A stretch of DNA of 57,519 bases, counting the filler, from Asterionella formosa (lineage: Eukaryota), in NCBI GenBank assembly GCA_002256025.1. It is 4 parts of 4 records of this genome, joined end to end, with 100 filler letters (N's around TTAATTAATTAA, not from the genome) between each part and the next. Parts side by side here need not be neighbours in the genome. Positions count along the whole stretch, not along the records: positions 28,824 to 43,125 come from NKIB01006077.1; 3 more parts are not named here. One strand, 5' to 3'. The notes below the pieces were generated by a model. The model saw nothing but the letters and a program-made list of their open reading frames with translations, was not told the DNA's origin and made no database searches. Positions 4,617 to 52,345 of this stretch are shown in pieces. The position numbers and the translations under genes were made by a program. Position 1 is the first letter of the stretch, and every line of letters starts with the position of its first letter.

Positions 4617-5136
4617 TTTTCATGAATGGGTGCGAACTAGTTACTTTGCTTCCAATTGCCTACCGTATCTCTATCTCTTCTTTGGTCTCTCTACTCCCCT
4701 TGTCCAAAGGGTTTGTCATTTTTGCTACGTTCGCCTGTCCATCTCATGTACGTATTTAGCATTTCTGTACCGAGATATTTCTCCACCTTCCACGTGTTTC
4801 GATTTCCCGATCATGATTGCATTGGTGTTTTAAAACGGGAGATTCGATGAAACTACCGCCGGTACGAACTCTTGCATACCGGTAGTTCTTTGTCGATAAA
4901 TCAATTGTAACTTGACAGCTGCCCTTCTTCACCTCCAGTAGATCCGATACCAGTTCCGGTACTCAATATATCCTTTTGCAACGTTATGCAAGCCAATCAA
5001 ACAATCAAAACCAAGATTCTAGGTTAGTATGACCGAGTCAACTACCTCAATCCTTGTAATGTTGGTAACCTAATACTTAATAGTTATATATTCCAGATCA
5101 CAGAGCACTCTGATACACCTAGGCTTTCATCAAGAT

Positions 5137-5796: not shown

Positions 5797-7565
5797 GGTG
5801 GGACAAATACGCGAAACGAAGTCCGAGGAAATCAATGCACCAACACAGCTCAATTTCAAGGATTTGTCCGTTGTTGAAATTGTATAATAAGATGTTCGTC
5901 CGTCGTATGGAGAGCGACGATCAGATTGATAGAATGCTCGTCTCTTCTTGTATGCAGTCCTCGTCTATATCGCTATCGTCATGGTTCGTTTCTGTTTCCA
6001 CACCATCATTTCGTTTCAAGCTAAAACAATAAGTACATACGCAGCATTAGGGGTCTCTGTCCAGTATTGTTTTATCAAATTTCCCCAAAGAAAAATGTTG
6101 CTGGAATTGTGCCCCTCGCATGCTGCGTGGTGTCGTATCATGTGGTAAAGTACCAGGGTAGCGAGAGCAAAGAAGGATCGAGAGGGTTTACAACTTCTGG
6201 GGAGCTCGAAAGTAGGGAACTCAAAAAATTACAGAGGGCATGCATTATGAGTGGTGCAAACAAACCTAATGGGGTTGAGTGGTTCAGCAGGACTAGAAAC
6301 ATGCATGAGTCACAAGTAGACCATGACCACATGATTCAATGCCTAGAACAAATGGGCTTAACAGGATATAAGCGGACACTGGGAAACCATGATGAAACTT
6401 ACTAGGCTACTAGTACCACCACCAGCCAGTTAGCTACTGGATAAAGTGATCTTCTAAGAATCTAAAAGCTCTCATTACTGATTGCCTCTGAAGGTCAACC
6501 CTCTCGAAACTGTAAATTTTTGAACCTTGGTCTGCATTGTTGATAAGCAAGCACTTGATCAGGCTTGGCTAATTCAGTCTGTTTACATACAACAAGAGAA
6601 GAATGGCTGAGCTTTTCCCACCTGCCATGCTGACCCTTTTTGTGAAACCAGCAACTCCCTCTGGGTGAGAACACCAATTGCGTCAATTTGCAGTGACTCC
6701 AGTGCCAAGAATCTTATGAAGCTTATTTTTAGGACAGATTATTTAGAAAATATACCATTTTTCTACGTGAGGGTTGGCTTGCTTACTCGAAGAATTTAAA
6801 GTTATTTAGACATGAGTGTAAACTCGCAATCACTACTAGCTAATTAAGTTATTAACATCTAAATAAATTGTTGTTCTAGTACTGTTATATCCTACATTGT
6901 ATTATGTATGTAGGGATTAGATGGTCCGAAGAAAAATCCCTCCTCATGTATCTGCATTTTGCTCGAGATGGCTATAAGTGAATATCGAAAAAGCCCAAAA
7001 ACGTTTTTGAAATGTAGTTGCCGATTTCAAATTAACTAAAAATACATTATTTGGAAACAATGCAGTCAACGGGCCTACCAAGACAAAAGTGTTGGAAGTG
7101 GACATGATTACAAACTACGCAACTCCAATCGCAACACCATTTGATGCTGTGAGAATCCGAAAAAGATTCCACAACAACTCCTGCAATAATAGAAGGAGGC
7201 AAAGCAGGCCTTGTCATAACCGCCTGGTAAACTCAAGATCAGAGAATCAGCGAATAACTAACAAATCATTCAAAACAAACAATGACAAACTCTTGACGAC
7301 ACACACAGCACATTCTGTGCAATCAAGGCTCCATTAGCCACCATGACAACATAGACTACCTACGCTGGGTGCGGTATGGCTGCTGACTGAAATTTTCCAA
7401 GAAAGTTCAAAAAACACTTAACATGTTCGGCATGGTTATCCAAGAGGAAAACTGACAAAAATAATTTATCATCATGTTGCAACTGTGCAAATCACGAATG
7501 AAATCACTGGTTAGTAAGCACACCAAGAAATGAAGAGATTTGTATTAAAATGCCTTTCTCTTGAG

Positions 7566-7650
7566 TGGGGGGGGGGGGGGGGGGCGGCGGGGGCGGGGGG
7601 GGGGGTGCGGGGGGGGGGGGGGGGGGGGGGGGGGGGGCGGGGTGGGGGCA
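7566..7650. repeat. Poly-G low-complexity tract
   Basis: About 85 bp of almost pure G; may be a sequencing or assembly artefact. Confidence 0.8.
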
Positions 7651-8823
7651 GGAGTAGCATGAGAAATGATGTTATATTTTGCTTTCATGACATCTGGTGC
7701 CACGCACAGGAGTGTCAACTCGAATCTTGGTTTCATTTTATCTGGAAAGTAACAATTGTTTTGTTGTTTGCAAAGGTAGACCACCAACTAATGTTGTCAT
7801 TTTTTATTATTGCTTCTTTCTATTCAGCTGGAGGCATGCATGTTGGGGGCTCGGATTTGTAATGCTGGATCGAGCAGCAAGCAAGTTATTATTCAATGTA
7901 ACCCAAGCTTGATTGGCAACAGCCAGCTCTATGCTGTACGGCTTGTCGGCTTGTGGCGAATTGGGCAAGGGATTATTATCCTCATCCCATGCTTAAGACA
8001 TTTGATCAACAATATCATCCATGTCAAAAGAAAAACTGGCACAGCTCACTCTATTCCTTGCTGGTGAGAAGTTTCTCTCGAACAAGCCCATTTTGTTCAA
8101 GGCTGTCACTAACTTACCAGTATGATGTGCCAAACATCATCTCAATCCAGATACAACATTGGTTGCAGGTGCATCGATTTATTGGAGGAGCAGTAAGTCA
8201 ATCAAGGATAAGGAAGGACGGAACTCTGTCATTACAGTCCCAGGCTCCAATTCTATCAGCAGTTTTCAACATGTATACCAACATCTGTGGTGATGCTACC
8301 AGTTTTAGAAGGTACGCATTTGCTTGCCATTGAAGATGAAAGTTGATCTCATTGAATATTGTCTTCCCCTTCCAGTATGCTAGCTAATTCCAGAAATGTT
8401 CACACTGCAGTCTTTTGCTGTGAGGCCTCCAGTATTGTCCATTCAATGCGTTGTTGGAAGTCCGTGTCACTGCTTGGAACTGCCCTTTGGAAGTCCATAA
8501 TGGTTGGTATCATCATCATTGTTTGCATTTTTTACCTCCAGCAAAACGCAGTTGAAATGACATGTGGCCAGAGAAGAGACTATTTGCGCACGATACAACA
8601 GAATTTTGAGTTGACTTATCTAGCTATACCTTGAACAATCGTAAATCGCATTAGCCAGTGGTAGTCTACATTTACCATATACACATATACACTTTGTCGC
8701 CCAGATTGAAATAAAAACAATGATGATCTCTCACATCCAGTCGATTGCACCTTCCGTCCTTGTAACTGAGAATCCCTATTCCCATGCTGAACTTGTTCAC
8801 ATTACATTTATTTCGCCCCATAC

Positions 8824-10545
8824 CTAAACAGATGTCAAATCATTGCAGTACTTTTGCTTTTTGCTTCCCACAAGGTTACTTGCGTCGTCTGAATTAACAG
8901 CATCCAGTGGCCGCTTTGATGCTATGGTTCCATAACCATTCGACATCCTTGCATTCTTGTGGTTAGTATCTCCTGTGAGTCCCGCAGATAGGCCGATCAC
9001 TGTATCCCCCAAATCTGTATCTGATGGCTCACTATCCAATTCTATCCCACCTGTATATTCATTATCGGCACCTGTTGTTTCCGATTGTCCAACTGCTCCA
9101 CCGTGTGCAGCATAAATAACGTTTAGTCTCTGCAAGCTTTCTTCGGCCTCAATTTCCTCGATACGAGCGTCGTCCTCGGCTTGGAGCCTTCCAGCCAGCT
9201 CAGACTTCGCTGCGTCTGTTGCTTCCGTTTTGAGTCGCTCATCTTCGTTCTCAATCGCAATTATCGCAGCTTTTTCCTCGTCTTCAGCTCGAAGAGCTTC
9301 CTCATCTCGATATCTAATAAAAAGATTGAGTTGGTAACGGAAACAATTTTGCAAAATATTCCATTTGTTTGAGCCATCGAGACGATAGTACCTTCGCCCG
9401 TCGTCTTCCTCAACAAGCAGTGCCGGCCCCATTAACGACTCGTAAAATTTTTCCGCTCGTTCACTCTTTGGAGGGTGCACGGCTATTGCTTCGGCACCGT
9501 ATCGCATTGAAAGAAAGATGACGTGACAAAAAATCAAGGTGGCAACCCCATTATATTCCATTTCTTCAGTAGGTAAGTTGTCGAGGAGGTCCCGTCGCAT
9601 TTTGACTTCTCTGTTGATTTGAGGCACAATTCGAATACCGCGGATGAGTGTTACCCTCACTCTTCTATCCTCCCCAATAAAATGTCGGTCCAATAAGTTT
9701 CGCTCAATATAGACGACCCCCAGTTTCTTTCCGTCCAAATCACAGAGTTTGTGCATCTCACATCCCTGATCAAACGTGTGACACCTTCTCACCCACCACC
9801 CGGCCCACACTTCGTCGACGTACGACAAATATTTATCTCCAGAGTCGTACCACATGACAAGGCTCCCTCCATCTGTATTGCATATTCGCTCAACGGAACC
9901 GCAACTAACTTTATCCCGATGTTGCATAAAAAGGAGGTGTCCCTTGCTGATTAAACTTAGTAAGCGAGGAGCCTCAGTGAGGACGTCTTCGTCCATTGAA
10001 TTGTATTCTGCGATCACTGGTTCCAGCACATTCTTTCGCAGAGCTTCTCCACACGCATACTCCAGTGGTTGTCCGAATAGTGCGACACGCTCTACCTCCG
10101 TAATAATGGTGCTTGGATCACTTGATACCTTGTGGATGTCCTTCGACACGTCCTTTGTATCTATAGCATTCTCGGGGTCTGCGACCAAAGTCGAGTCTTC
10201 TGGTTCCATACCTAAAATGGATCCGTTTACATGCTGCTGCGCATGTCTAGCTTGTGCTGAGAAAAGCGATGAGCTGGAGTTGCATACCGTGTCCAGCTGA
10301 AGGTGTCGGTTTGTTTCGGAACGAGTCGCGGCTACATTGTTTGAATTTTCATCTAGAGAAGCAATAGCAGTATAAGACGAAGTCGACACCACACTCGGCA
10401 AGCTCAGGAGTGATTGCACGGCGAAGCGATCTTGAGCCTCATGGGCTGCACTAGGTAAAGGAAGCAACTGCACTTTTTCCCCTCGAGGAATCGGCACCGG
10501 GCCAAATGCAGCCCGACCTCTTCCTGGTCGATTCCCACCAAACAT
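8824..10545 (-). CDS. Hypothetical 573-aa protein with a probable GNAT acetyltransferase-like domain
   Basis: Single long ORF. Segment YNGVATLIFCHVIFLSMRYGAEAIAVHPPKSERAEKFYESLMG resembles GNAT motifs A/B. Acidic C-terminus with a bipartite NLS-like KR...KKQK. Confidence 0.75.
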   Translation of the reverse strand: MFGGNRPGRGRAAFGPVPIPRGEKVQLLPLPSAAHEAQDRFAVQSLLSLPSVVSTSSYTAIASLDENSNNVAATRSETNRHLQLDTVCNSSSSLFSAQARHAQQHVNGSILGMEPEDSTLVADPENAIDTKDVSKDIHKVSSDPSTIITEVERVALFGQPLEYACGEALRKNVLEPVIAEYNSMDEDVLTEAPRLLSLISKGHLLFMQHRDKVSCGSVERICNTDGGSLVMWYDSGDKYLSYVDEVWAGWWVRRCHTFDQGCEMHKLCDLDGKKLGVVYIERNLLDRHFIGEDRRVRVTLIRGIRIVPQINREVKMRRDLLDNLPTEEMEYNGVATLIFCHVIFLSMRYGAEAIAVHPPKSERAEKFYESLMGPALLVEEDDGRRYYRLDGSNKWNILQNCFRYQLNLFIRYRDEEALRAEDEEKAAIIAIENEDERLKTEATDAAKSELAGRLQAEDDARIEEIEAEESLQRLNVIYAAHGGAVGQSETTGADNEYTGGIELDSEPSDTDLGDTVIGLSAGLTGDTNHKNARMSNGYGTIASKRPLDAVNSDDASNLVGSKKQKYCNDLTSV

Positions 10546-12593
10546 GATTTACTATATACGATCTGAAGACAGCTGAATATACTGGGTGCTTTCACAAATC
10601 AAAGAATTCTGCACGATGTATCAAAATGTAAGGAGAAAAGGCTTCGTCGCAAACTAGTTTGTTGGCAGCATATGTAGATCGCAGCAAAGTGGCCTTTCAA
10701 ACAATATGTTTGGCAGCTGCATTACCTTGTCGCCGTGCTTAAACCCTCGAAGATCACACGAGTCGGGCCGACCCAAGGAAATTTTCTACCTGTGGTTTAG
10801 TACAAGTGTTCGTTGGAGCACTGGCTCGACGAACATGCGTTCCCTTCTCCTCATCAGGTTCACGACCATTCTGTCGACCTTCCTGCCAAGATTAAGCGCG
10901 GCCGGTGTCCTGGATGTAATAATAATAACATACAGCCTCAAAGAGCGGTATATACCGGTAACAGGTACTGCAATGCTGACGCGACCTGGCTTGTCCACCA
11001 GGAGGAGCATTGATGACTCGGAGTAGCCATGCCATATTCTCCGGAATGTCGCATCGTGCTGGGTAGGCAACTTGGACATGGTACCAGGTGCCAGGCACCG
11101 TTAAGTACCAGTTATCCCAGGTACTTGTTGCGTATAAGTGTGTTGCTGCATACATTTCACATGCCGGAATGTAGAGCATCATGCCAGGACACTTACAACA
11201 TGTTGTACCCTGCAGAGTAAAATATTGTATGCTTATCTCTATTTTCTCCTGATTTTGACTCCATCAAGGCAGAATTTGAGGGTACCAGGTATAGTCAAAT
11301 TGTAATTCTGCTTGTGCATTTGAAAAATATAGAATTCATGCTAAGCATTTCTTGAGCCCCTTCCCTGGCTGTAACTAACATTACAAGATTGATCCATGAA
11401 AATGCTTACCACTGAGTCAAAATTTTTGATGAAGTTGTATTCCAGAAATCATTTTGCATACTTCATGATTGGAGCATTGGGCAATAGTAAATTCCTACAT
11501 AAAATTAATAAATCCATGATAATATATTTCTTTATCCTGGGGAATAGCACTAGCTTAGGCCCTGTCTTATGGTGCCCCAATTACGAAGATTGAGTTGACT
11601 GGATAACCTGTTGGGTGTTTAATCTTCGTATTTTCGTCCCTCACGGACTAAAAAACTCGCAAATCCCCCCCGATTACAAAGATTAATCTTCGTTCGCCCG
11701 AATATTTCGAGAGTCATCCCTGATATTGACCCAATCTTCGTATTTTCTTGAACAATCTTTGTTTCCCAAAGATTAATATTCGGGCAAATGAAGATTGTCT
11801 CCACCAATCAGAATGGCGGAAACAATATATAATTGTCATCACATATACTGATGATATAGTATTCGATAGTCTGTTAAGCGAAAAAGAATGAAAAGACCTC
11901 TGAGTCGTCATTGTGATGGTAGGGAGATACTGGTGGTGGGAGAGGAGAAAGGATATAGGCCGATGTGAATGCCGATCACGACCTTACAACAACAGCAACG
12001 ACAACAATGGAGCATTGAGTGTTGACGATTTTCATTATAATTAATTACTATAATATTCCTACGGATGAGACTACCAATTTTCATGACAATTGTCGAGTTC
12101 TTTAACAATAGTGTACTATAAAATTTACTTAATAACTTTTTATTTCTTTATCCTCTTAAACAGCAGTCAATGATAAATGCAATGAAATACATGGCACATC
12201 GTTGTTTCTCTTGACATTGTCACTTCCATTTTCGTCATCATTTCTCTGCTGAAATTCTTTAAAGGTCATTGCAGATATGCCCAACATTGGCTACATGAGG
12301 TCTGACTCACATGAACCACAATTTCCAGGAACAGCTACCATTTATGTCATGTTTCAGAAATTAAAAATGTTGCAATTGGCCAGTACTGAGGGGTGATTTT
12401 CACTTAGCATGATGGAGTAGCAGAGAAAACATTTATTGAGCCATATTTAGTTATTTATGTCAACTTTTATGATGTTACTGCCCTGGCATCCAATCCTATC
12501 CATAATGGCAAGTGCCTTATGTGTGATGAGGAAAAATTATGGCAATGGAGTCTTGGGTGTATCTTGGGGGTTGGAGCGATTTGAGATTGCTTC

Positions 12594-12763
12594 ATGGGAA
12601 GGAGGTTGTTAGTTGCAGTTTGATACTCTTGGAAGAGAATGTGCCTGCTGTGGTCCTATTAGGTGTCCAGCCAGATACGCAATGGGAAGGAGGTTGTTAG
12701 TTGCAGTTTGATACTCTTGGAAGAGAATGTGCCTGCTGTGGTCCTATTGGGTGTCCAGCCAGA
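12594..12763. repeat. Near-perfect tandem duplication, 88 bp period, 2 copies
   Basis: ATGGGAAGGAGGTTGTTAGTTGCAG...GTCCAGCCAGA starts at 12594 and again at 12682. Confidence 0.9.
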
Positions 12764-13682
12764 GTATCCAAGAATCTTCCGATGTCACAATTTGTTAGGA
12801 CGAGGAGAAAATATTGAAGAAATTGAATTAACAAACATAGACTTTCTAGTGTTAATCAATGCATCTACTGCTCCTTGATTCACAACAGTAGCAGTATTGT
12901 TATCATTAGCAAGAGCAACCACCATGATGGACCTATCAAGTTGTGGCAACAAACTGGCTCACAAGTCACCATGATGGTACCACCGACTATAGAGGTTCTG
13001 TCATCAAGGGATGGGTTGTGAGAAGTTAAATTATTCGACTATAGAAGAAAGTGAAGAAATTGAATTTAAAAATTCCTTAAGTAACCATTGGCCTACATGA
13101 CGTTCCCGTAGACGAAATACTGGGGCAAATTTTCCATCTGTCACGAGAGGACTGCCTTGGCTGCACGTGTTTACCCATAGATACATATGTACTGGATACA
13201 AACTTTTCCCGACAGGACAGCCAGCCAGCACACATGGATGAGGATGCATGCACCACTATTTATAGTCTGTCCTTATGATCCACAGACAAAGCAATATCTT
13301 ATAGGGTACCTGGTACTTGGTACCAGATGCTCCCTTCTATTTACTTGAGGATATATTAGCTTAGGATTGATTACATGGTCTTTCAGATCATTTCTACGTT
13401 GGTAGTAGTAGATACCGATTTTGTTTTTTACTGCTGTACATATGCACCGGTGCGTAGTACTGACAAGAATCCTCCGTCAGCATTTTTCATTCAACGCGTG
13501 CAGAAAATGTTGCCCATCATCATCCTGCCTCTTTCGATCACCATCATACGTACATACCCGGTACACTGTACCGGTACTCGGATTGTGTATCAGTCGCCAC
13601 CATCACACCGTGATACCGGCGGTACCTGGTACTTCCATTCCATTATATCCACTCCCCTCAGCAAGAGAGTAAATATTATTTC

Positions 13683-14312: not shown

Positions 14313-14412
14313 NNNNNNNNNNNNNNNNNNNNNNNNNNNNNNNNNNNNNNNNNNNNTTAATTAATTAANNNNNNNNNNNNNNNNNNNNNNNNNNNNNNNN
14401 NNNNNNNNNNNN
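14313..14412. other. Artificial contig linker (N...TTAATTAATTAA...N)
   Basis: Spacer with stops in all six frames, flanked by Ns; the same linker occurs at about 28724-28823 and 43126-43225. Confidence 0.95.
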
Positions 14413-22260: not shown

Positions 22261-22944
22261 NNNNNNNNNNNNNNNNNNNNNNNNNNNNNNNNNNNNNNNN
22301 NNNNNNNNNNNNNNNNNNNNNNNNNNNNNNNNNNNNNNNNNNNNNNNNNNNNNNNNNNNNNNNNNNNNNNNNNNNNNNNNNNNNNNNNNNNNNNNNNNNN
22401 NNNNNNNNNNNNNNNNNNNNNNNNNNNNNNNNNNNNNNNNNNNNNNNNNNNNNNNNNNNNNNNNNNNNNNNNNNNNNNNNNNNNNNNNNNNNNNNNNNNN
22501 NNNNNNNNNNNNNNNNNNNNNNNNNNNNNNNNNNNNNNNNNNNNNNNNNNNNNNNNNNNNNNNNNNNNNNNNNNNNNNNNNNNNNNNNNNNNNNNNNNNN
22601 NNNNNNNNNNNNNNNNNNNNNNNNNNNNNNNNNNNNNNNNNNNNNNNNNNNNNNNNNNNNNNNNNNNNNNNNNNNNNNNNNNNNNNNNNNNNNNNNNNNN
22701 NNNNNNNNNNNNNNNNNNNNNNNNNNNNNNNNNNNNNNNNNNNNNNNNNNNNNNNNNNNNNNNNNNNNNNNNNNNNNNNNNNNNNNNNNNNNNNNNNNNN
22801 NNNNNNNNNNNNNNNNNNNNNNNNNNNNNNNNNNNNNNNNNNNNNNNNNNNNNNNNNNNNNNNNNNNNNNNNNNNNNNNNNNNNNNNNNNNNNNNNNNNN
22901 NNNNNNNNNNNNNNNNNNNNNNNNNNNNNNNNNNNNNNNNNNNN
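22261..22944. other. Assembly gap
   Basis: Long run of N. Confidence 0.99.
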
Positions 22945-28723: not shown

Positions 28724-28823
28724 NNNNNNNNNNNNNNNNNNNNNNNNNNNNNNNNNNNNNNNNNNNNTTAATTAATTAANNNNNNNNNNNNNNNNNNNNN
28801 NNNNNNNNNNNNNNNNNNNNNNN
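28724..28823. other. Artificial contig linker
   Basis: N...TTAATTAATTAA...N. Confidence 0.95.
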
Positions 28824-30837
28824 GAAAATTCTAAATTCACCATGGAGCCAGTTTTGTTTTCTCTTGGGATTTTCCGTACAACTGTAAGGAACAAAGTCAT
28901 TGCTTGGCGCCCCCTTGGTCTAATACCAAAACTTGATGGTCAGAGTCTTGCATTGAACAAAAATATGACTGCCGACGATAAGTGCAAGGATTATCACACA
29001 ATTTTGGCAATTATATTGTCGGGAGTTCAAGAGACTCAGAAATCTGGTGGCTTCAAGTATAATTTCAATTTCCATGGCAAACAGCATAGCCTGGTTGTAA
29101 AGGTACCGGTCGGGTTGGTGCTTGGCGATGCGGAAGGATTGGACAATCAGTGTGGGAGGATTAAATATTACCTGAAAACTTTTCGTCTCTGTCGGGAATG
29201 TGATTGTTCATACGACAAATTAGATAAACCATCAATCAAATGCTCTCCAGTAGGGCAAGTGGGTTATGCTGCCCTATTAGGAATGAACGACAAAACACTA
29301 ATGGATGCCGTGTCACAACGTTTTATTACACCTTGCTGGTATGCGCTGGATTTTGGTGGAGATCCATTGGGAATCAATGGCCATTGCCCTCCTGAAAAGT
29401 TGCACTCAATACATGAGGGAATGATGCTTTATCTCATTCTTCTGTTCACGGTAAAGTTCGGCACTGTTACCTCTGCTCAGGGGTTGAAAAATAGAACCGC
29501 TTTTGATACATTATTCATAAAAGTGTCAAAGATGATGCAACATCAAAGCGATTGGGATATGCCAAGGTGCAATTTTCATGGTGGATTCCATGGATGTTGT
29601 CCAAAGATTACAGGAAATGAAACCGTTGGAGTAATGCTTGTTGCTTGTTTGGTAATGGCTACAGACGCCGGAATGAAGCTTTGCAAGGATGAGGTTGGAA
29701 TGTCAATGCAGGAAATAAAAGACATCCAAATGATTTTCGAGGGCATGGTTTGTTATAATTCCAGGTTCAGCCAAGAAAGTTATGACGTACATCGATTGAT
29801 GGAAATTGATTGTCGATCCATTGTCAAGTACTACACAAAATTAGTCAAGATTTTCCCAAGAGAAACGACAGAGCAAGGCTGGAAAATGACAAAGTTTCAT
29901 CAGCAGATGCATACTGTCCGAAATATCGAACGGTTTGGCAGTCCGCAAGTTTTCAATAGGGGACCAATGGAAAAGAATTTGAAATTCCTTTGCAAGCAAG
30001 CTACCAGCTAAAACATCTCAAAAACGAAATCACCTAATGGACCTTCAATCTGGACAACGAATTATCGAAAACATTGCCATAGGTGTTGCATGTCGGGAAT
30101 TTTTGGGAAGAGATCCTTTTGAACATGACGATACAGATTCGCTCGCTGATGATGGTACTACTAATGAAACACCAAGCACTGGGACTGACAGTATAAGCAC
30201 ATCTACAGGTGGTGCACGCTTTATCTTAAAGTTACAGGAAAATAATGGTGGATTCGCTATTGCCTCTGTCACTTCCAATTCGGCGACTATAAAGACATCA
30301 GGAGTTGACATTGATTTAATTCGATTTCTAGGAAAGGAAGTGCTTCCCTTCATAACCAAAAAGTCAATTGAGGTCCTGTGTGAACACAAACGAGATGGAA
30401 ATAATTTCCATGCCCATCCCAATTATTTGGGACAGGGGTCTTGGTATGATTGGGCCGACTTCAAATGTATAGATGAGGAAAGTGGTATACCTTACATAGT
30501 ATTGGGGAAAATCTTTGGTTTTGTATTGCTTGGGCCTGAATTTGATTTTACTTATCCACGATTGTGTGCATCACTCCGCAACGAAACAACTGGAATCTTT
30601 GCGATTGTGAACTCATGTGAGGATCCAAGTGAGAGTTTATTTAATAGCCGTCGTTCTAAAATGTTTGAGATCGCTCACCTGATGGGTTATGAATCAGGAA
30701 AGAGAAAACAGCTCATGTTTGTTACAGTCGATTGTATTTCTGCTCCTGCTGTTGTTGTCCCTAATATTGGAGGAATACCTGGGTCGGTATTACAAGTTAA
30801 ACCTCAGCATACTTGGCCATCTTTTTTCTCATTTTGA
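28824..30837 (+). mobile_element. Plavaka/CMC-like DDE transposase (5' end lost in the gap; one frameshift)
   Basis: Motifs WRPLGLIP, YHTILAIIL, LVLGDAEG..NQCGR, CRECDC, PEKLHSIHEG, KFHQQMH...IERFGSP..FNRGPME and FHAHPNY...SWYDWA. Removing a duplicated 4-mer at about 29993-30000 restores CKLPAKTSQKR. Confidence 0.8.
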
Positions 30838-30995
30838 GATTCGAGATATGCATGCACACAACACAGCAGTTCTAGTTATTTCTTTTAATATATATATTGG
30901 CTACCGGTAGCTATATGTATGAACGTCATAATGTCAATCCCCACATTGAATTTGTAGACAGTAATTTCTTCTTGATTCGTGCACCTTATTCAATC

Positions 30996-31412
30996 ATGAG
31001 TGCCTCCCGAACCCCCAACGCGTTGTCTGCTCGGAATGAAGATGAAGACCTTTCTCTGGAGACGAGTGATCTCGTTTCCGTATTGAAGGGTAATTATTAT
31101 GGTGAAATTGGCCAGTTTGTATGCTACACAAAGGCCAAAGTGTTGGTCAATGTGTACGACAGGGTCTCCAATAAATGAGTTCTCGACCATGCCCGGAAGC
31201 CTTCCGAAATCAAGAAAATCGTTCCTTGGGACAATACTTCTCCTTTACCTGAATACTTCGAATCCATTTTGGAGGATGAGGTCTGGATTGAGATCAAGAT
31301 TGATCAGATTGCTGCACAGTTTGTTGCTCGTGGTCTAAATCACGAATCGCCCATTCTCTCGATTATTTTCGTGATCGTCTGTATGCCGCACAACTTGAGT
31401 GTACAGAAGTAA
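30996..31412 (+). pseudogene. Small KOW-motif ORF with one internal stop (transposon passenger)
   Basis: SDLVSVLKGNYYGEIGQFVCYTKAKVLVNV resembles the KOW consensus. The frame continues past TGA 31176-31178 to 31412. Confidence 0.55.
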
Positions 31413-31743
31413 GCGACCGCGTGTTAGCCGCAACTCTTGCTTCAGAAGAGGCAGAATAGTATTAATAATTAGTTGTCCTACCGGTACTTCAAAATTGAAT
31501 ACCAATTCTTTGTTGTTTGTAGTCAAAGAATATATTATATCGGTAAGTATAAAATATAACTCAATGCATTGAGTTACCGGTAACACATTTGCCCCATTTT
31601 ACTGAATCCATTTCTTCTTGATTCCCATATGGTTATATTGCATGATCACTTAGTAGTACTAGTACCGTAATAGCAGTGATATCTGTTATGTTGTAAATTC
31701 TGTGACATATCATCATGCAAAATAATATAACCGACAAGCAACA

Positions 31744-33159
31744 ATGGTGATCTCGAACAGCCTACGTGCATCCCGAATTGGAAGAATGATCCCCATTCTT
31801 CCAGTTCCACTTCCTGAGAACACATTTCGGATTGGGGGGTTGTGGTTAAATAGAGACTTCGAGTACTGCTTGATAAGCATCGTGACCACACTCACCGTCT
31901 TTTACTTCGTCATTTCCTACAAGGTCATGTCGAAGATACCGTGAATGCGGATCTTGCTTGATAGTTTATTGGACGTCATGTTTAGGAGACTGGAGTCAGT
32001 GAATTCTTCAAATTTCATTAAAAAGAAGGGTGGAAAGAAGATTGGATGGCATGCACTTGTTATTGATCATAGCAATGTCAAGTTTGCTAGAAGCTTTGTT
32101 GATGAGGTTCGGCCTTCGAACCAATGTGACCGCATTAAACATCTCAACATTTTCTTACCAAAAGTTGCAGACACGATGAAAACTGTTCATTTGATTATTT
32201 ATGATGATTTCATGCTACAGATTGAAGGGACTCTATCTTCCAAGATATTTTTGTTGAATTTGTCTTTCCTCCCGGACCAATTTTTCGGAACAAAAGATTG
32301 TCCTTTTCTTGACCTGGGCTTTAAACAAATTTTGGGGCAACTCAGAAATGACGAGGCTACCAATTCACTCATCAAGAACACATTCGGTTCTAAAACTATA
32401 CTCTGTCGTGATTGCTATTGGCAAATGACAGGCAAGGTTATGTCATTGATTGCCTATGGAGCATTCAATGACAAGATGGTGATCTCGAATACATTACTTT
32501 CCAACAACATCGACATGTTTTGGAAAACTTTTTCTATGTTCATTCCCGGTTCTGTGCTGCAATCACTTGCAAGTGACGCAACATATGTCAGGAAGAGTAT
32601 GCCTCACACCTGTACATTGTTGCACACTGCTGTAAATCACTCTAATGTTCCTCAGGAGCCACATTTTGACTATCAGCATGCAGAACTGGTAGTCAATGAC
32701 TTCGAAAAGTGCCTTCCTTGGGGATTGGATATGTCCCTAGGTGCTGGTGGTTTCTCTATAAATGTCTGGGATGGCGAGTCATTTGAGTCTAACCTCATTT
32801 TAGATGGAAAAGTTAAATGTAAAGCAGAATTCAAGTAACATGCCATGGAACATGTAAACCAACATGCAATGCTTCTTCGCATTCCCTTCAAGTACATCTT
32901 CTTAATGCGAGGTGATACGGTTAATGCAGGTGCTATGGATAATCACCTAACCAATGGTGCATTGAGACTTCACATGTATTTGTCGCCTGGTTCCACTCCA
33001 GAGCAAAACTCAGTTGCTATTTGCAAAAGATTCGGAAATGCCATTAACACAAAAGCAAATGGTACGGAGTGTATCCCTCCATCACTAGTTTTGTTTTGCT
33101 TGATTCCTATGGGGAAAGATGGAAGTAAGAATTTTTATTTACTCATAAATAGTTACTAA
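31744..33159 (+). pseudogene. 2-oxoglutarate/Fe(II)-dependent dioxygenase-like ORF, interrupted
   Basis: Three ORF-track pieces share one frame (stops at 31942 and 32836). QEPHFD (HxD at 32662-32670), IFLMRGDTVNAG (distal His position is AAT, one base from CAT) and LRLHMYL. Confidence 0.7.
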
Positions 33160-33228
33160 CAAAATGGTTATTTGTTTTTAATCAAGTACAGCCATTTGCA
33201 AATAACCGCTGGTGTCGTTTCTTTGCTC

Positions 33229-33453
33229 CATCGACCAAGTCGGACAGAAGTGTCATGTTTTTGACAAGTCTCGTCGTTCCAACCACTCCTCATATTCGAA
33301 ACCGTTTGATTCGTCATTGTGGCAAGTTTTGTTGTGTTGCGCAGGAAGTCACAAATAGGCGGGAGACATCCATCGACCAAGTCGGACAGAAGTGTCAGGT
33401 CAGTTCTTGTCATGTCTCTTCGTTCCAACTCCTCTTATTCGAAACCGTTTGAT
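33229..33453. repeat. Imperfect tandem duplication, about 142 bp period
   Basis: CATCGACCAAGTCGGACAGAAGTGTCA at about 33229 and 33371; TATTCGAAACCGTTTGAT at about 33293 and 33436. Confidence 0.8.
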
Positions 33454-34001
33454 ACGGCGGGATACAACCTTCCTCGCTGATTCCCAAGTCCAATGGTACC
33501 ACCAGAATGCAGCAAAGTTTTCTTCCCATTCATGATCCTTGGGACTTCGTCATGTTGAGGCATTCTACCCCCTGCTCCATAACCACAGCCACCCTGTCGT
33601 GGGCCGTTGCAACGCACGATAATGGGTGATGCACCAAATTTTTACGGTATAATAGATTCCAGCGCTTTGACTTTCACAGCCTCTCTACAGAGCTGCGACA
33701 GAAAATAATAGGGAAAAACATATTACCACCATAACCGTAGGTGCTACTTAAAGGTGCTGAAAAAAGACGTAGACGTACTACCTGGTACCGGTAGTAACTC
33801 GTCAGCCTGGCTAGTAATTATCGCGCCAGTTAAATTCATAAAAGCAATATTATGATAACTAGCTACCGGGTAGGTATGCCGTGCATCAACACATCACGAG
33901 CATTGATTGTCTCCAATAGTACTTAGAAGTGCTGTCACTAGTAGCAGATCACAATGATTTTGTTGTTTTAACAAAGTAAGATATTTCGCCAAACCACCAC
34001 C

Positions 34002-35129
34002 ATGTGGGCTAATCAACACAATTCTGCATCGTTGTCTGAAACAGACTCCGTACCAGACAATCCTATATCGGATGGATACGACGATTATCAACTTGAGGAG
34101 TATAATGAATCGGAAGAGAGTGTCAAAGGAGATGGGAGGTTGACGGCTGAACAAGAAAGAGATAAACTCCAAATTCTATTGTCTGAGAGTACACAGGAAA
34201 TCAAGCGCCTTCGTGAATTAGCAGCTGAAAACAACCGTTTAACAATTGGAGTAGTAGGTGGAATTGGCCGGTGCAAACATTGGACAAACCTTCTGGCTAG
34301 CTGGGTCAGAGAGGAATTGTTTCCAAAAGTTAAATTCGTCACAGGTGATTATGATTTGGAAATTAGGGAACCCGACAGCATTGCTGGTGCTGTTTGTTAT
34401 CATTTCCCATCACTCAGAAATTGTACTGACGAAGAGTTTGAATCATTTTGGTTCACATAGTATAAGTGTGACAACAACAAAATTATGTCTGAAAAAATGA
34501 ATGCTGTTTCAACATCAATCAGAAAGGGTTTCAAAAGTAAGTGCAAAATGAGGTGTCGTGCTTGCTGTTGCCTTCCTTTTCCAAACAATACTTAATTATA
34601 AAAACAGGAATGGTTGAGAATGGAAAGTTACAGTTCCTTTCCCGGAATACGATTGTTCAGTCCAGGACAGAACCACCAGATGTTGGTAAAGTTGAAGAGC
34701 ATCCCATCATTTTTATTATTCTAGTGAATTACATTTTTTCTCGGGTAGTGAAGTATGGTGATTATGCTAGCCAAAAACACAAAAAATATGACCTCCATCA
34801 TGACTGTATCGGATGAAGCATATGCCTTACTTGTCTTAGAAAATAGTTGGGATGTATGGACCCAGAACTATACAACTGGGGATACTGGTAATGAAATTGC
34901 TGGCAGTGATGGTGGTTCAGGTGTTTTGGTGAAATGCCTCTATACAAACCATGGAGGAGTTGGCAAACGGTATGGAGGGTGAGAAACAAAGGGTTATGCA
35001 AGGTTCAATACAATTTATGATCAAGTCGAGCACCTACGTGAGTCTGCAAACAGCATTGCTTTGGAGTCTATGTTCATGAATATGCAAAAGAAGGATACAA
35101 ATGTTACCAAAATGGGAGGTAAGAAATGA
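34002..35129 (+). pseudogene. Transposon accessory ORF (TVSDEAYALLVLENSW type), spliced and interrupted
   Basis: VREELFPKVKF, stop at 34458, intron 34537-34607 (GTAAGT...CAG), poly-A frameshift near 34785, then TVSDEAYALLVLENSWDVW...LYT...YGG*ETKGYARFNTIYDQV. Confidence 0.65.
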
Positions 35130-35216
35130 ATTGTTATTATTAATATTAGTATTATTCTCATGTACTAGCTAGCACTAATGTAATCACAATTCCAATGTGG
35201 GTAAGTTCTTGCTTAT

Positions 35217-35995
35217 ATGCCACCTGTGATTAGGGTACGAAACGACCTGGGTAAGGCAAAAACTCCAAGTACCGCTAGTATCCCTTCCACAGCCTCTTCA
35301 ATTAGCGATCTTTCGGGCACTTCACCAGCAACTGAAAGAAGCAGCACCCCCTTACTAAGAAATCCAATTCGTGTTTATGGTTCTTTCCCACGGCCACCCA
35401 ATGTGGCCTCGCTTCCAACAATGGAAGGAAATGTGACACCATCAGAAAATGAACTTAATGGAATGTCAGGAAGTTCTATTAAAAGCTTATCGAATCGCTT
35501 AAAAAGTTCGACTAAAACAGCCACTACTTTGAACCAGGTGTAAGTTAACTGAAAATCATCGTTGGACAAGGATTTCATGAATTGTAAGCGCCAAGGAATG
35601 GCTATTCTGGTTATGGAAGCCATGACAAAATGTATGGAACGTCATTACCTGACAGTTCCCAAAGAACACCAAGAGATGTTAAAGGCAAACAACAACTATA
35701 AAGCATCCTACCAGATGACTATGGAGGATCTCCATGACAGTGACATTCCTGAGTATAGGCGACTCGAGAAAAAAAATTCAAGAAATATTTCATTGAGTGC
35801 TATGCTGAGACATCGGGCAATTTCTCTGCTTTCAATATAAGGGAACGAGCTTGCCATACTGAGGAGCTGAACAGAAAATATGCTGCTGCAAGAGAAGAAA
35901 ATGTTCATCTACCTTATGAACATTACCTTACTATGGGTAGTAGTGTTCGGAGAAATATGATGCAGTTTGAAGGAGAAATGGAAGAGATCTAACCG
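35217..35995 (+). pseudogene. Additional interrupted ORF with Ser/Thr/Pro-rich N-terminus
   Basis: ORFs 35217-35543 and 35562-35840 are in the same frame and continue past single-codon stops. Confidence 0.45.
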
Positions 35996-36964
35996 TGACA
36001 CATATACCTAGCTGTTAGTGAATGATAACTAATTTCGTATCTATGAAACAATGCATTTGCAGAGGATGTTATTTCTATATATCTCCAACGTCTGCGCGTC
36101 CTGCCAATATCTACTCATTACCTCAATCGTTTCGACTGGTGGTATCGAGTAAAACATTTGCGAGAATGAATGGATCGATGGGATATTGATCACAAACAGG
36201 AAGAAATATAATTTTTCGTGAGTGGTGGTACTAGCTAGTACTATACTAGTACATCTAGTAGTTGCTCGTTGCCTGTATTATTCTAGGCAAAAACTGATGA
36301 GCTTTCACCTTTTATCACTTAATTGCATCATTGAATGAAAATCAAGGAGTGTCTACTACTGTACTGATGTGGTACATATATATAAAATACGTATCATGAA
36401 AAGGCACAATGGCTGATAGTCAGCTAGTAGTAGGAGTAACAATATGCTATTCTATCAATTCACGCTTGTAGATACAGAATTTGGACCGGAAGAAACATTA
36501 CATTTAGCAAGACCGCGCCGGTGTTTTCTGGTAGAAAGTACGTTGTTGTGGTACAACGAGAGAATCCAGGCCGCGCCAGGAGTTTTGCCACACAGCAGGA
36601 GGGTCCACAAACACAAAAATTAGCATGGTGAAAAAGTAAGCAATCAATGCGGCCAACAGCCAATCACCCCCTACTGGCTCTTCAGCAGCTAGATTTACAT
36701 GTTTTTGTTGTGTATCTAAATGCTAGTATGGCTTGTCAGCTCACGCATTGTTGTTGATAACAGGCACGGACAATGAGGTCCGGAATGAAAGTTGTTCTGG
36801 TAAGATTACTGCGCTATTTTGACGACTATATGAGCAACGCTACTGATAACTCACACTGATCTTCCTCTACATTCAATTGACATTGCAGCAAAACCTTTCA
36901 GTGCAGGAGCATTCGCATGCCGTTCCGAATGAGCAGGCTTTATTTCATTAATGAAACTCTTTAA

Positions 36965-37405
36965 TTTAGTTGAATTACCTGCAGTAAAATAGTTGAACAA
37001 CCTTCAGAAAAATAGTGGAATTGCCTTCAGATAATTAGTTGAACAACCTTGTGATAATTAGTTGAATGAACTCCAGAAAATTACGTAAACAAATTTTACA
37101 TATTAAGTGAACTTTATTCTAGAATAATGTGAACGAAATTATAAGGCAATGTGAACTAAATTACAGAATTACGTGAAGTATTTCAAATAATTACTTGATG
37201 TATTTCAAATAATTACGTGAAGGTGATGACGTAATATAGTGATGATCAGGAATGCATGCATGATACTTTGATAAATATTTAACGTGATGTATTCAGATAA
37301 TATATAGATATATTCAACTACGTATTTGGATGTATTCAACTAATTCATGTGATGCATTCAACATCAACTAGGCTTATTTATGTGATGGTCACTTCACGTA
37401 ATACA
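36965..37405. repeat. Array of short (about 22 bp) degenerate repeats with a partly inverted right portion
   Basis: TAGTTGAA and TTACGTGAA units on the left; TTCAACTA and TTCACGTAA on the right. Confidence 0.7.
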
Positions 37406-37409
37406 TGGC

Positions 37410-37880
37410 TTAGATGGTCACTGCAAACAATACTCCTCAGAATCCGGGGATAGCCCATCCATCACCACGCTGACAAGTATATCGCTTGAAAAATCATTTC
37501 CGGAAATAGTCAGCAGCCCACCAGAGTCGCCTTGGCAGCTGTCTTTACCTTGATCAGTGGCAGCACATACTATACCGCTATGTATTTGGCCTTGGTACGA
37601 GTCAAAAGGAAACAGTGCACCTTTTTGAATTTGAACAAGCGTCATTCGAAATGACTTCTATTGAAAACTGGACACCAGTGGCACATGCCATATCGCTATA
37701 TATTTGGCCTTGGTACGAGTCAAGAGGAAACAGTGCACCTTTTTGAATTTGAACAAGCTTGGTCATTCGAAATGACTTCTATCGAAACCTGGAACAAATC
37801 AACTGCTCTGCGACTGCTGGTTGTTTCCATCTGTAAGTCCCCAATCCATTACTATCACTTCAATTCCTGTAGCTGATACA
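37410..37880 (-). pseudogene. Trypsin-like serine protease C-terminal fragment with an internal duplication of about 118 bp
   Basis: VIVMDWGLTD, IEVISND.CSNS, SYQGQI (twice), CAATDQGKDSCQGDSGGLL and PGF*GV, with frameshifts. Confidence 0.8.
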
Positions 37881-38323
37881 CTCAAATCAAAGTTCAATCG
37901 GACAGAAGGGCACAGTTCTTTGTCCAGCCAGCCATTGTATACTCATTTTGTCATGCCTTAAAGTGGACAATTCAACAATAGAAGGATGAAGGTATTCCTT
38001 TGAGTTATATGGTATTCCTTTGAGTTATATAGTGTTTTACCAAATTTGGTCAACACAAACACAAATTTTGCGGTTATGAGTACAGTAATTTATGTTAAAA
38101 TACACATGATGTAATTTTCTTTTTGACTTTGAAGCGCGCCAAGTACCGGCATTAGCATCTGAACCATTTCTTTTCTTTGATTTAGCAGGACACAAGGATT
38201 TGATTGCGAGGTTTAGAGGTCGAGTCCACGTTATTATCAGGGAACGGGATTAGCTTCGAGAAGTAGTCTGATCGCTTCGGATCGACATATATAGCAAGAA
38301 AGTCGGAGAATGGGACAGGACCA

Positions 38324-43125: not shown

Positions 43126-43225
43126 NNNNNNNNNNNNNNNNNNNNNNNNNNNNNNNNNNNNNNNNNNNNTTAATTAATTAANNNNNNNNNNNNNNNNNNN
43201 NNNNNNNNNNNNNNNNNNNNNNNNN
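43126..43225. other. Artificial contig linker
   Basis: N...TTAATTAATTAA...N. Confidence 0.95.
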
Positions 43226-48384: not shown

Positions 48385-51300
48385 AGAGAGAGAACAAAAG
48401 GATGCCCGGAATGAAGATGAAGATGTTATCTTATCGTTTGCACAGTTAGAAGGAAAATGTTACTGCTGTGGAAGAGCTGGACATAAATCACCGTCATGTC
48501 GCAAAAAGAATAAACCCAAAGAGGAATGGGCAATCAACAAGGCCCAACAAAGCCATGCACAGGCTACTACATCGGAAATGAGTACGGTTACCTCTGTTAA
48601 TATCAACAACCCACCATCATCACAAGCTTCACAACAAGCGAATGTCAATCGAGTTGGATGGGCGGGAGCTCATATCAAACTACAATTTGATCAAGCATCT
48701 GAGATGCGAGACTGGATACTATTGGATAATCAATCAAGTGTCACAGTTTTTGGCAATTTAAAAATGGTTGAAAACATTCGAGTGCCGACTAACGGAAGCT
48801 TGCACCTGGCCACAAATGGTGGATCCATGGTCACTAATATGAAGGCTGATCTTCCACAATAGGGAGAAGTATTATTCAATGACAAGGCAATCAACAACAT
48901 CTTCAGTTGTGCCGAAATGACAGATAGATACAGGATTATCTTCAACTCTGAGAAAGAAGATGCATTATTGTTCATTTGCCTGACAAACCAGTTCGATTTG
49001 AAAGAATTGGAATGAATCTATACATTTTCAAGCCTCCCACAACTGTTAAGGCTGAGAATGCTCAAATGTTAAATACAGTTGAAGAAAAAAAACCTTCTAC
49101 ACTGAACGTCGATTTGAGAGAGCCAAGCGAGCTCGTGATCTATTTCATGCCTTGGGCACGCCATCAATTAACGATTTCAAGGCAATAACTTGTTTGAATA
49201 CAATCAACAACAATCCAGTGACTAAGGATGATGTCAAGATTGCCGAGAAAATTTTCGGACCTGACGTCGGAACACTAAAAGGCAAGACAACTCGTTGCAA
49301 GCTGCTGCCAGTCGTGAATGACTACATCGAGATTCCTAAGTATCTTATCAAAGCTCAATGTGAAGTGACTCTTTGCATGGATGGAATGAAATCGAATGCA
49401 CAATCATTTCATACAAAAATTTCTCGAAACATTATGTATAGGACAGCGCAATGGGTCAAGAATCAGACAGCTGATGTCTATCGAGATGCTTTGACTCAGG
49501 TATTCCGTGTTTACAACACCAGAGGATTTAGAATTACAACAATCCACTGTGACAACGAGTTTCGACCTTTGGTGGAACAACTTTCCAATGACCTTCAAGT
49601 GACTATGAATTATGCAAACGCACAAGATTACCTTTCAAAATTTTGCCATGACTGATGATTAAGATTCTAGTCACAGAATCGGCAAAGAAACTGAATTTCT
49701 TTCCGGCAAAGAACGGGATATTCCCTTATTACAGTCCTCGTATGATTCTACATCAACAAAAACTGGACTATGCTTGACATTGCCAGTATACATTTCGCAC
49801 TTATGTCCAAGCACATGACGAACCGGTGTTTTCAAATACTAATGCACCATGCAGCCTAGATCGCATTTATCTACGCTACAATGAGAATGTGCAAGGAGGT
49901 CATGAGTTACAAAACCTACCAACGAATCCATTGATCACTAGAGCAATAATAGAACAAGTACATGCCCTTGCTGTGCAGGAAAATATGCGAGATGTTCTCA
50001 AGATATCTAATCGAACGGGACAACTATTTAACAATAGTGCTTGGATTGCAGGAGTGGATTATGACAATGAAGCATTTGAAGATGCAAAAGATGAGGATTA
50101 TGAAGATCAACAAGCTAGTGATGGTGAAAGTCATGATGAACTGCTCAGATAAGACTATGATGAAATGACTCCGGATGAAATATATGAAGCAGAACAGTTT
50201 GAATTAAACCATATCCAAGAGGATGACCCTGAACCTGAGGGCAATAATGAAAATAATGTTGAAATGAATGCAGATGAAATCCAAGACGAGGATGAAGAAC
50301 CAGTAAATGAAAATGAAATGAAGACGCAATGTTAGAAGTCAATCCAAGCACTGAGGATGACACAGACACCAAATTTTAGAACTACAAGGTCTGGAAGAGT
50401 CTCAAGACCACCATCAAAACTATCTATGGTCCAAAATCATTTGCCAACCCAAGCACACTGTCAAGAAGAATACAAAACTGACCGAAAGTGATCGCAATGA
50501 AAATGTGTTATTTGAATGAGATGTCTAGCTATCGATTAAGAAGCATTTCACTTTGTTCAGTCATACAACTTATCAAAAGGCCTCAAGAAATTTGGCCAGA
50601 AAGGAAGGGATGCTGCATATGAGGTAATGAAACAACTACATGACATAGTTGTATTTGAACCGATTAGGATTGAAGACCTAACAGATCGAGAAGCGACGTG
50701 CAATGGAAAGTCTAATTGTTTTGGTTGAAAAGAGATACAAGAGTATTAAAGGCAGAGCTTGTGAAAATTGCAGTTCGCAACGTGAATATATGGAGAGAGA
50801 TGAAGCAGATAGTCCAACTACCATGACTGAATCTGTTATGACAATGGCAACAATTGATGCGAAGCAAAATCGCGATGTTATGATGGCAGATATACCCAAT
50901 GCATTTGTGCAAGTGGATAACGATGAGAAAGAAAAAGAAAAAGGGAACAAATCATTATGAAGATTAGAGGTTTACTTGTCAATATGTTGTCGGAACTCAG
51001 CCACGAGACTCATGAAAAATATGTTTGTTATGAAGGCAATAACAAGGTCCTATATGTAAGGATGATCAAGGCATTATATGGCATGTTACAGTCATCATTG
51101 TTCTATTACAAGAAACTTCGGAAGGATATTGAGTCAATTGGATTCAAGGTCAATCCATATGATCTATGCGTTGCAAATCGCATTGTTAATGGCAAACAGC
51201 ACACAGTTACTTGCCACATAGACCATTTGAAATCTAGTCAAGTGGACAGCAAAGTGAATGATCAATTTTTGGAATGGCTCAAAACGAAATACGCTTCTGA

Positions 51301-52345
51301 CGAAATTGGTGAAGTCAAGGTCATGCGTGGAAATAAGCATGATTATTTGGCAATGACACTAGATTACTATCTTCCAGGAGTGTTGAGGGTGGATATGACT
51401 AAATATGTGAAATCAATGATTGATGATTTTCCAGAAAAAAGACAACTTGAAGGTTTCGGAAAATTTCCATGGACAGATACATTGTTTATATTTGATACAA
51501 TAGCAATGAAGCTTGAATACGAAAAAGCAAAAATATTTCATACTTTTGTTATGAAAGGAATGTTCCTATGTAAGCAAGGAAGACAGGACATTCAACCAGG
51601 AAATGCATTTCTGGTAACCTGAACTACTGAGCCAAATGAAGACGATTGGGCGAAATTAGTCAAGATGAATGAGGTTGCATCCATGAGTGCTGATGACACT
51701 CATAATGTAAAATGGTACGTTGATGCGGCGTTTGCAGTACACAAAGATTTTAAAAGTCACACAGGAGGTACATTGTCACTTGGAAATGGAATTATTTGTT
51801 CTATGTCTATGACACAGAAAGTGAACAACACTAGAAGCTCGACTGAAGCAGAATTGGTTGGTGTCAACGACATTATACTTTCAAAGGTGTTGTGGACGAA
51901 ATTATTTATTGAAGCACAAGAACACAAGGTGACTACGAATGTCATTTACCGTGACAACATTAGCGCAATAAGGCTGCAAGAAAATGGAAAAGCATGTTCA
52001 GGAAAACGCATGCGACATTTCAACATCAATTTTTTAATTTACTGATCTTATTGAAAGAAAGGAAATACAAATTAAGTACTGTCCAACGGATGCAATGATT
52101 GCAGACTACATGACGAAACCACTGGTTGGAACGAATTTTATTCATTTTCGTGAGCAAATTATGAATTCAAAGTGAGCATCCGTGTCCAGCAGGATTGGGT
52201 TAGAGAAATTATTTTAGGAAAGAAAAATCCCGGTATGAATTACCTACCTTATGTTGAATCGAATGAATCAAAACGAATATGATACCAGAGAAAACTCAGA
52301 ATTCGAAAACAATCAACATCGCCAGTAAAACCCATAATTCCACTG
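48385..52345 (+). mobile_element. Degenerate Ty1/copia retrotransposon: zinc knuckle, protease, integrase, RT, RNase H and start of the 3' LTR
   Basis: CYCCGRAGHKSPSC, WILLDNQSS, IHCDNEF, ADIPNAFVQ, KALYGMLQS, HIDHLK (decayed RT DD), WYVDAAFAVH, SSTEAELVG, YRDN and ADYMTKPL. Many stops and frameshifts. Confidence 0.92.

Follow-up and report, generated by a model that had tools for sequence, protein, structure and literature searches.

The stretch analysed here, positions 31744-33159 on the plus strand of a 57,519-nt window of DNA from Asterionella formosa (GenBank assembly GCA_002256025.1), had been described in an earlier note as a cryptic dioxygenase gene that could be recovered by reading through two stop codons. 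Several separate contigs make up the window, linked by artificial spacers (44 N, TTAATTAATTAA, 44 N) at 14313-14412, 28724-28823 and 43126-43225, and the stretch sits on the contig at 28824-43125. It is certainly a pseudogene of a transposon accessory gene, which we call ORF2 (for open reading frame 2, by its place in the repeat unit described below); the pseudogene occupies 31744-33128, and its intact form encodes 457 residues. The label "cryptic" is therefore wrong, as the locus is a dead copy. Taking all evidence together, we consider it rather probable that this decayed copy comes from an accessory gene, with a divergent dioxygenase as its probable product, of a Plavaka-type DNA transposon (CACTA/EnSpm-related) that carries several genes and resides in a eukaryotic alga.

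Three ORFs do lie in one frame at the locus (31744-31944, 31945-32838 and 32845-33159), separated by a TGA at 31942-31944 and a TAA at 32836-32838, and the motif letters that suggested an oxygenase are all present. PHFD, an instance of the HxD motif and undamaged in this copy, is encoded at 32659-32670 (plus strand); RGDTVNAG follows at 32908-32931, with AAT at 32923-32925; and a strand reading RLHMY at 32965-32979 (plus strand) contains the candidate arginine for binding 2-oxoglutarate (2OG). The pentapeptide MVISN is found at 31744 and again at 32476, in both cases on an exact 14-nt repeat that is unique to these two sites in the window; the second site is not kept in relatives (one of them, P0004, has DKMKISD there), and no function is evident for the repeat. 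A Pfam search with the three ORFs of the window gave no match, and the window contains only this one ORF2-like stretch.

The nature of the locus becomes clear from comparison with an intact copy. A scan of metagenome contigs returned four loci, one of which, L001 (8,552 nt), holds a complete five-ORF unit: ORF1 at 430-3432 (1000 residues), ORF2 at 3817-5190 (457 residues) and ORF3 to ORF5 within 6079-8060 (196, 190 and 257 residues). ORF1 of L001 matches the Pfam family Plavaka, PF18759, over profile positions 34-320 of 325 (E 1.2e-10; 41.6 bits, with a cut-off of 26.3). By blastn, L001 and the window are colinear in three blocks: L001 1423-3535 corresponds to window 28824-30940 (98.5% identity), 3534-3710 to 31049-31228 (95.0%), and 3815-8277 to 31742-36209 (96.2%). 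Since L001 is colinear with the window and its ORF1 is a Plavaka protein, the stretch is ORF2 of a Plavaka-type repeat unit.

The remaining genes of the unit, all on the plus strand, are also present in the window as remnants. The Plavaka-type transposase (28824-30837) is represented by residues ~332-1000 of 1000; it is cut by the start of the contig and broken by a frameshift near 29990, with tblastn placing residues 332-722 at 28824-29996 in frame 1 and residues 719-1000 at 29989-30834 in frame 2, at 97-98% identity. This remnant itself reaches only E 0.049 against PF18759, and a search for its relatives in the length band of 213-681 residues, outside which the intact 1000-residue protein falls, found none. 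Comparison with L001 further identifies remnants of ORF3 at 34002-34592 (one stop), ORF4 at 34553-35126 (a frameshift and one stop) and ORF5 at 35217-35989 (two stops and a frameshift); the intact L001 forms of these three have no Pfam match. All five ORFs of the window unit are thus damaged.

For ORF2, the DNA alignment with L001 (96% identity over L001 3815-5190) reveals six lesions, of which two are insertions, two create stop codons, one is a deletion and one replaces His by Asn. In order along the plus strand, these are an 8-bp frameshifting insertion at 31829-31836, seen as a gap in L001; a TAG stop at 31851-31853, which lies in the true frame and where intact copies read TGG for Trp; an insertion of 4 bp at 31953-31956; the TAA stop at 32836-32838, which is CAA (Gln) in intact copies; AAT (Asn) at 32923-32925, where intact copies have CAT for an invariant distal histidine; and the loss of one T at 33093-33094, again shifting the frame. 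The 8-bp and 4-bp insertions sum to 12, so that the first two ORFs of the window share a frame; because that frame is wrong between the insertions, the TGA at 31942 does not stem from mutation of a codon of the gene. Similarly, the last ~13 residues of the third ORF are spurious as a consequence of the 1-bp deletion after 33093, and the real stop codon is at 33126-33128, not at 33157-33159. The CAA reading at 32836 is taken from L001 and from protein relatives (Gln in P0002, the closest of them), not from sequencing runs. The window copy also differs from L001 upstream of the gene, where blastn breaks delimit a copy-specific segment (31228-31742) in place of ~105 bp of the intact element, and another 109 extra bases at 30940-31049. 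The dN/dS ratio (non-synonymous to synonymous substitution rates) of the window copy against L001 is 0.55, from 12 synonymous and 24 non-synonymous changes, which are too few to separate decay from constraint. With this set of lesions, the window copy cannot make the ORF2 protein.

Sequencing runs place the intact form of the gene in the foreground. The DNA run X1 contains a fraction of 0.72 of the sampled words of the window, and parts of the window were found in 23 further runs, amounting to 17 studies in all, with runs labelled as algal, freshwater and marine metagenomes. X1 is possibly the source sample of the assembly, and we therefore do not count it as independent support. When contigs of X1 and of the RNA libraries X22, X13 and X20 were mapped to 31200-33500, 32,835 X1 contigs fell on this stretch, almost all of them with intact-type letters: at 31852, within the TAG, G accounts for 409,777 of 410,305 depth units (~528 for the window-type letter), and at 32923, C for 589,112 of 589,140 (~28 for the window-type letter). 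The histidine that the earlier note expected at 32923-32925, and proposed to look for in paralogous copies, is thus found in X1, as it is in every intact relative. Intact ORF2 copies are far more abundant than the window type in X1, where depth stands for neither copy number nor expression level.

Each of the three RNA libraries, which come from three studies, contains a single contig spanning ORF2: 1415 nt in X22 (polyA, from the same sample as X1), 1325 nt in X13 and 1833 nt in X20 (polyA). All three contigs are without the 8 and the 4 extra bases, carry a T inserted after 33093, and have G at 31852 and C at 32923, which is consistent with transcription of intact copies. Loose contig ends at 31742 in X1, X22 and X20 match the L001 sequence upstream of the gene.

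Relatives of the ORF2 protein were collected in several ways. With the read-through translation as query (X at the TAA), six relatives were found among 2,878 candidates, the best being P0002 (457 residues, 93% identical), which belongs to a cluster of 116 member sequences. The middle ORF, searched exhaustively by phmmer against 1.84 billion representative sequences, gave only 31 proteins at E <=0.001, mostly fragments, and a profile search added P0038, P0039 and P0040; none of the relatives has a name or a Pfam domain. Scans of viral contigs (39 pattern matches) and genome contigs (4 pattern matches) contained no relative, and at E <=10 there was no match for P0002 in 50,697 phage records (tblastn), nor for a hidden Markov model of the family alignment in three megaplasmids and two cyanophages. 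The ORF2 family is small and unannotated, but conserved, and it is found in RNA libraries.

That alignment, A4, comprises 11 sequences from six lineages, down to ~30% identity. In the C-terminal ~230 residues it has 23 invariant columns, which include the Q, P, H, D and Y of QxPHxDY, the motifs PWG, GG, IPxK (with its Lys) and FLMRG (with the Arg of MRGD), and the distal His in RGDxVH. Across all 11 sequences there is no exception at the three residues of the candidate 2-His-1-carboxylate set (His and Asp in QxPHxDY, His in RGDxVH), while the Arg of GALRLH is present in nine of the ten sequences covering it and the next His in all ten; the HxD...H...R set read from the damaged locus is therefore kept among homologs. 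From HxD there are ~77-86 residues to the distal His and a further 14 (18 in P0007) to the Arg, a spacing in keeping with that typical of Fe(II)/2OG oxygenases, in which a basic residue some 10-20 positions beyond the distal His binds the C5 carboxylate of 2OG. We infer that intact ORF2 consists of an N-terminal domain of ~225 residues and a C-terminal domain of ~230 residues. Between L001 and a further copy, L002, dN/dS is 0.42 over 352 codons (dS 0.71), which speaks for constraint. In the copy L003 (protein P0003), the ORF2 frame is open for ~175 residues upstream of the usual ATG and is broken where the HxD motif should be (PHFGSQ); copies of ORF2 may therefore differ in their true N-terminus, or an upstream exon may contribute to it.

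Further indications come from protein language-model neighbours. Nearest to P0002, at 0.93, is a cluster named "2OG-Fe(II) oxygenase family protein", and of its 30 hits 6 fall in PhyH (PF05721) clusters at 0.91; P0007 has no named neighbours other than Fe2OG and 2OG-FeII_Oxy_3 clusters, at 0.83-0.84. Based on the motif, these neighbours and the precedent of other Plavaka elements, we suggest a highly divergent Fe(II)/2OG dioxygenase as the probable nature of the C-terminal domain, and we think that intact ORF2 belongs, with somewhat better than even chances, to an undescribed Fe/2OG-dioxygenase-like family. The oxygenase proposed from the window sequence thus stands as far as its residues are concerned, while its assignment finds no profile match to a known 2OG family.

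Several observations fail to support a dioxygenase or weigh against it. The atlas recognition values of the two language-model queries, 2163 and 2256, are below the 2300 mark, with only 125-132 shared features, and because these figures are low we treat the matches as leads only. Profile searches, proposed in the earlier note for the repaired protein, were unsuccessful throughout with the intact relatives: at E <=10, none of 11 family members matches any 2OG family of Pfam, PF12851 (Tet_JBP) and PF05721 included, PHROGs and NCBIfam returned nothing relevant for the same members, and a sequence search of the PDB with a 17-row profile gave 0 chains. The only rows returned for the 11 members were at chance level (SLIDE at 0.038, SPACA9, and urease at 0.15). 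AlphaFold2 models have a mean pLDDT (predicted local distance difference test) of 37.0 for the full 457 residues (17 rows) and 31.5 for a 229-residue construct (33 rows), with no residue above 70, values too low to inform on the double-stranded beta-helix fold that the earlier note had inferred. Two relatives, P0040 (GALHLH) and P0045 (GAPHLH), have His in place of the candidate 2OG-binding Arg; CpG decay (CGN to CAN) in dead, methylated copies would fit this replacement. Finally, presence in an RNA library is no proof of transcription.

Profile-profile comparison by hhalign likewise did not rise above noise. As comparators we used 24 PF13640-type proteins from three cyanophages and E. coli K-12 (all 24 loci), seven PhyH proteins (two, plus the five most divergent of 30 listed among 160 records; sequences were taken stop to stop, and some have untranslated N-terminal tails) and four ParB_N proteins. 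In the search for such comparators, PhyH gave nothing in E. coli K-12 and the control genomes and only sub-threshold matches in the cyanophages, a PhyH protein used as query against viral contigs found nothing, and PF12851 found nothing in 3 cyanophage records or 14 control genomes. The C-terminal domain of ORF2 scored 18.7 against PhyH (P 0.1), 12.0 against the PF13640-type set (P 0.34) and 13.9 against ParB (P 0.47); with a 29-row C-terminal query the PhyH score falls to 11.6. The N-terminal part scored 15.6 against PhyH (P 0.31), 15.2 against the PF13640-type set (P 0.13) and 13.4 against the ParB_N proteins (P 0.56, at noise level). Negative controls lay at 13.4-15.6, and reversed decoys of the three sets at 10.2-14.2 with either C-terminal query, whereas the positive control, PhyH against the PF13640-type set, reached 41.4 (P 1.2e-5, 81% probability). 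The greedy alignment path to PhyH pairs HxD with HxD, His with His, Asn with Asn and Arg with Arg, a correspondence that has no statistical weight.

Beyond its genes, the unit contains repeats. Just downstream of ORF2, at 33227-33456, are two tandem units of ~143 bp (repeat families D4 and D6; L001 5294-5384 and 5437-5524). Contig depth jumps right after ORF2, over 33125-33500, from 42 to 979-13,333 in X22, from 64-88 to 1,322-4,637 in X13 and ~2-3-fold in X1; as a repeat or as a transcript, this region, which holds the ~143-bp units, seems to outnumber ORF2 itself. Farther on, 36944-37362 is occupied by arrays of 22-23-nt repeats (TAGTTGAA..., ...GTGAAGTATTTCAAAT) that have 10-12-nt words in common with the first 250 nt of L001. 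These arrays could be subterminal repeats of the element, whose 3' end would then lie near 37400. On the 5' side the contig begins within the element, at 28824, and colinearity with L001 stops at 36209; neither a terminal inverted repeat nor a target-site duplication could be identified, as comparisons of the two L001 ends with each other and of the L001 5' end with window 36200-38300 (blastn-short) gave only words of 8-12 nt. At the 3' end of L001, 8456-8552 is a second copy, 92% identical to window 33071-33164, of the final ~95 nt of ORF2. Beyond 8277, where it departs from the window, L001 is either rearranged, nested or chimeric.

The rest of the window is of eukaryotic content, with RFC1, a BRCT protein, a kinase-like ORF and a Copia-type reverse transcriptase fragment (RVT_2, E 2e-5) at 50957-51622, which is on a different contig from ORF2. 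Because the window joins separate contigs, genes past the spacers are not genomic neighbours of the ORF2 copy. Another run of N lies at 22261-22944, tRNA and Rfam scans of the window found none, and for a ROK-family protein of the window there was no relative among the genome contigs scanned.

The alternative that survives best is that the transposon uses ORF2 as an accessory protein without enzymatic activity, such as a factor that binds the repeats of the element in the manner of TnpA of CACTA/En-Spm elements, and in which the conserved His, Asp and Arg are structural or serve metal-dependent folding. TnpA-type proteins are the second gene of CACTA/En-Spm elements, beside the transposase, in elements with short repeat arrays; ORF2 likewise is the second gene of a CACTA-superfamily element with such arrays, adjoins the transposase and is followed by the conserved ~143-bp tandem pair. 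The absence of an enzyme family by any profile method and the noise-level hhalign scores speak for this explanation, as does a faint match to SLIDE, a DNA-binding Pfam domain, in 2 of the 11 members (the E value of 0.038 given above). It accounts less well for invariant polar residues whose order and spacing are those of a 2-His-1-carboxylate site plus Arg, a set for which, to our knowledge, TnpA proteins are not known. In addition, the only named language-model neighbours of two members that are ~29% identical are 2OG/PhyH oxygenases, and the N-terminal part stays at noise against the four ParB proteins. We regard a non-enzymatic role as unlikely, though it deserves to be taken seriously.

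A more specific form of the enzymatic explanation is that the ORF2 family is itself a TET/JBP-type DNA base oxygenase which acts on 5-methylcytosine (5mC) or N6-methyladenine (6mA) of the element, as in the Plavaka and KDZ transposons of fungi. The type of carrier is the same, the HxD, H and R residues are all present in the ORF2 family, and fungal Plavaka elements carry TET/JBP genes of which some are visible only by structure comparison (PMC12730594). Against this, PF12851 is not matched by any of the 11 members even at E <=10, and the language-model neighbours are PhyH and generic 2OG clusters, not TET/JBP. Membership of the TET/JBP family proper therefore appears improbable to us.

Two other explanations concern the locus and not the family. 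The lesions might be assembly or consensus errors in a repeat of very high copy number, with the genomic locus intact; the family is indeed extremely repetitive in X1, where contigs are ~100 nt, and such regions assemble badly. However, six independent lesions in ORF2 plus damage in four other ORFs exceed the usual collapse errors, and the window-type letters do have a small depth in X1 (the ~28 and ~528 units at 32923 and 31852), even if X1 may not be independent, so that we consider errors of this kind very improbable. As to the recovery of a functional dioxygenase from the window locus by readthrough of its two stops, through recoding or an unusual code, we give it practically no credence: the common frame of the three ORFs that spoke for it is made by the 8-bp and 4-bp insertions with a TAG in the true frame between them, the 1-bp deletion shifts the C-terminus, the candidate iron-ligand His is Asn, intact copies use ordinary sense codons at both stops, and the other four ORFs of this copy are broken too.

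Returning to the dioxygenase that we prefer for intact ORF2, a mechanism can be sketched. Iron would be bound at a 2-His-1-carboxylate site made up of His and Asp in QxPHxDY and His in RGDxVH, and 2-oxoglutarate would be held by the GALRLH Arg or else by the invariant Arg or Lys just upstream. By analogy with fungal TET/JBP and red-algal PAG3, the N-terminal half might bind the element, and the enzyme might then oxidise a DNA or chromatin mark on it; oxidation of the mark could counter silencing by the host and keep the element active. Tentatively, we suggest that ORF2 represents an undescribed, deeply divergent clade of Fe(II)/2OG dioxygenases that is a regular, transcribed cargo of Plavaka elements of diatom-like algae, and that oxidises a DNA or chromatin mark in order to escape silencing; this full scenario goes beyond the family assignment, and we hold it with correspondingly less confidence.

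Transposons with a chromatin- or DNA-modifying enzyme of their own are rare, and they show how mobile DNA can counter host silencing; so far they have been described in fungi (TET/JBP) and, in a preprint, in red algae (PAG3), and our full-text literature search found no description of such cargo outside these two groups. An abundant algal Plavaka with an unannotated oxygenase-like gene would extend the pattern to another major lineage. If the scenario is true, this would be the third independent pairing of Plavaka with a 2OG oxygenase, and the capture of oxygenases might then be a general strategy of the Plavaka lineage across eukaryotic supergroups. It would also add a new enzyme family that could be assayed on 5mC, 6mA or histone marks. 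The copy in the window is dead; what makes it useful is that it leads to the intact family (ORF2 of L001, P0002, P0007 and P0039).

Among known systems, the closest parallels are Plavaka elements with oxygenase cargo. Iyer et al. reportedly described, in 2014, TET/JBP dioxygenases encoded by DNA transposons of fungi. In Agaricus bisporus and Gymnopus confluens, PlavakaB families have genes for TET/JBP dioxygenases, very divergent fungal forms of the "PE type" were recognised only by HHpred and structure comparison, and the proposed role is escape from methylation-based silencing (PMC12730594, Kojima 2025). Like ORF2, the fungal genes are accessory genes beside a Plavaka transposase, have a His-x-Asp/Glu...His set and include forms that are invisible at the level of sequence. 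Unlike them, ORF2 is found in an alga, does not match PF12851, has a large additional N-terminal domain and shares its unit with three further ORFs.

The giant Plavaka elements of red algae carry three accessory genes, of which PAG3 has no InterPro domain; according to a preprint on Bostrychia moritziana, HHpred relates an N-terminal part of PAG3 to ParB (E 0.29) and a putative 2OG-oxygenase part, as best hit, to 2OPW_A (E 0.016), and tandem arrays of inverted repeats adjoin the gene (bioRxiv 10.1101/2025.02.11.637652). In the L001 unit, in contrast, no gene like the methylase/SET gene PAG2 was seen, there are two repeat units instead of an array, and the N-terminal part of ORF2 gave only the noise-level score against ParB_N. 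The likenesses to PAG3 as described are a Plavaka transposase with several accessory genes, one of them with features of the 2OG type and, for ORF2, language-model neighbours of the PhyH type, and repeats beside that gene. From the PhyH family (PF05721), to which 2OPW_A presumably belongs, ORF2 is set apart by the lack of a PF05721 match and by an hhalign score (18.7, P 0.1) that does not stand out above the controls; the two nevertheless have in common the motif order HxD...H-x(5-6)-N...R, and it is in PhyH clusters that one fifth of the language-model matches of P0002 are found.

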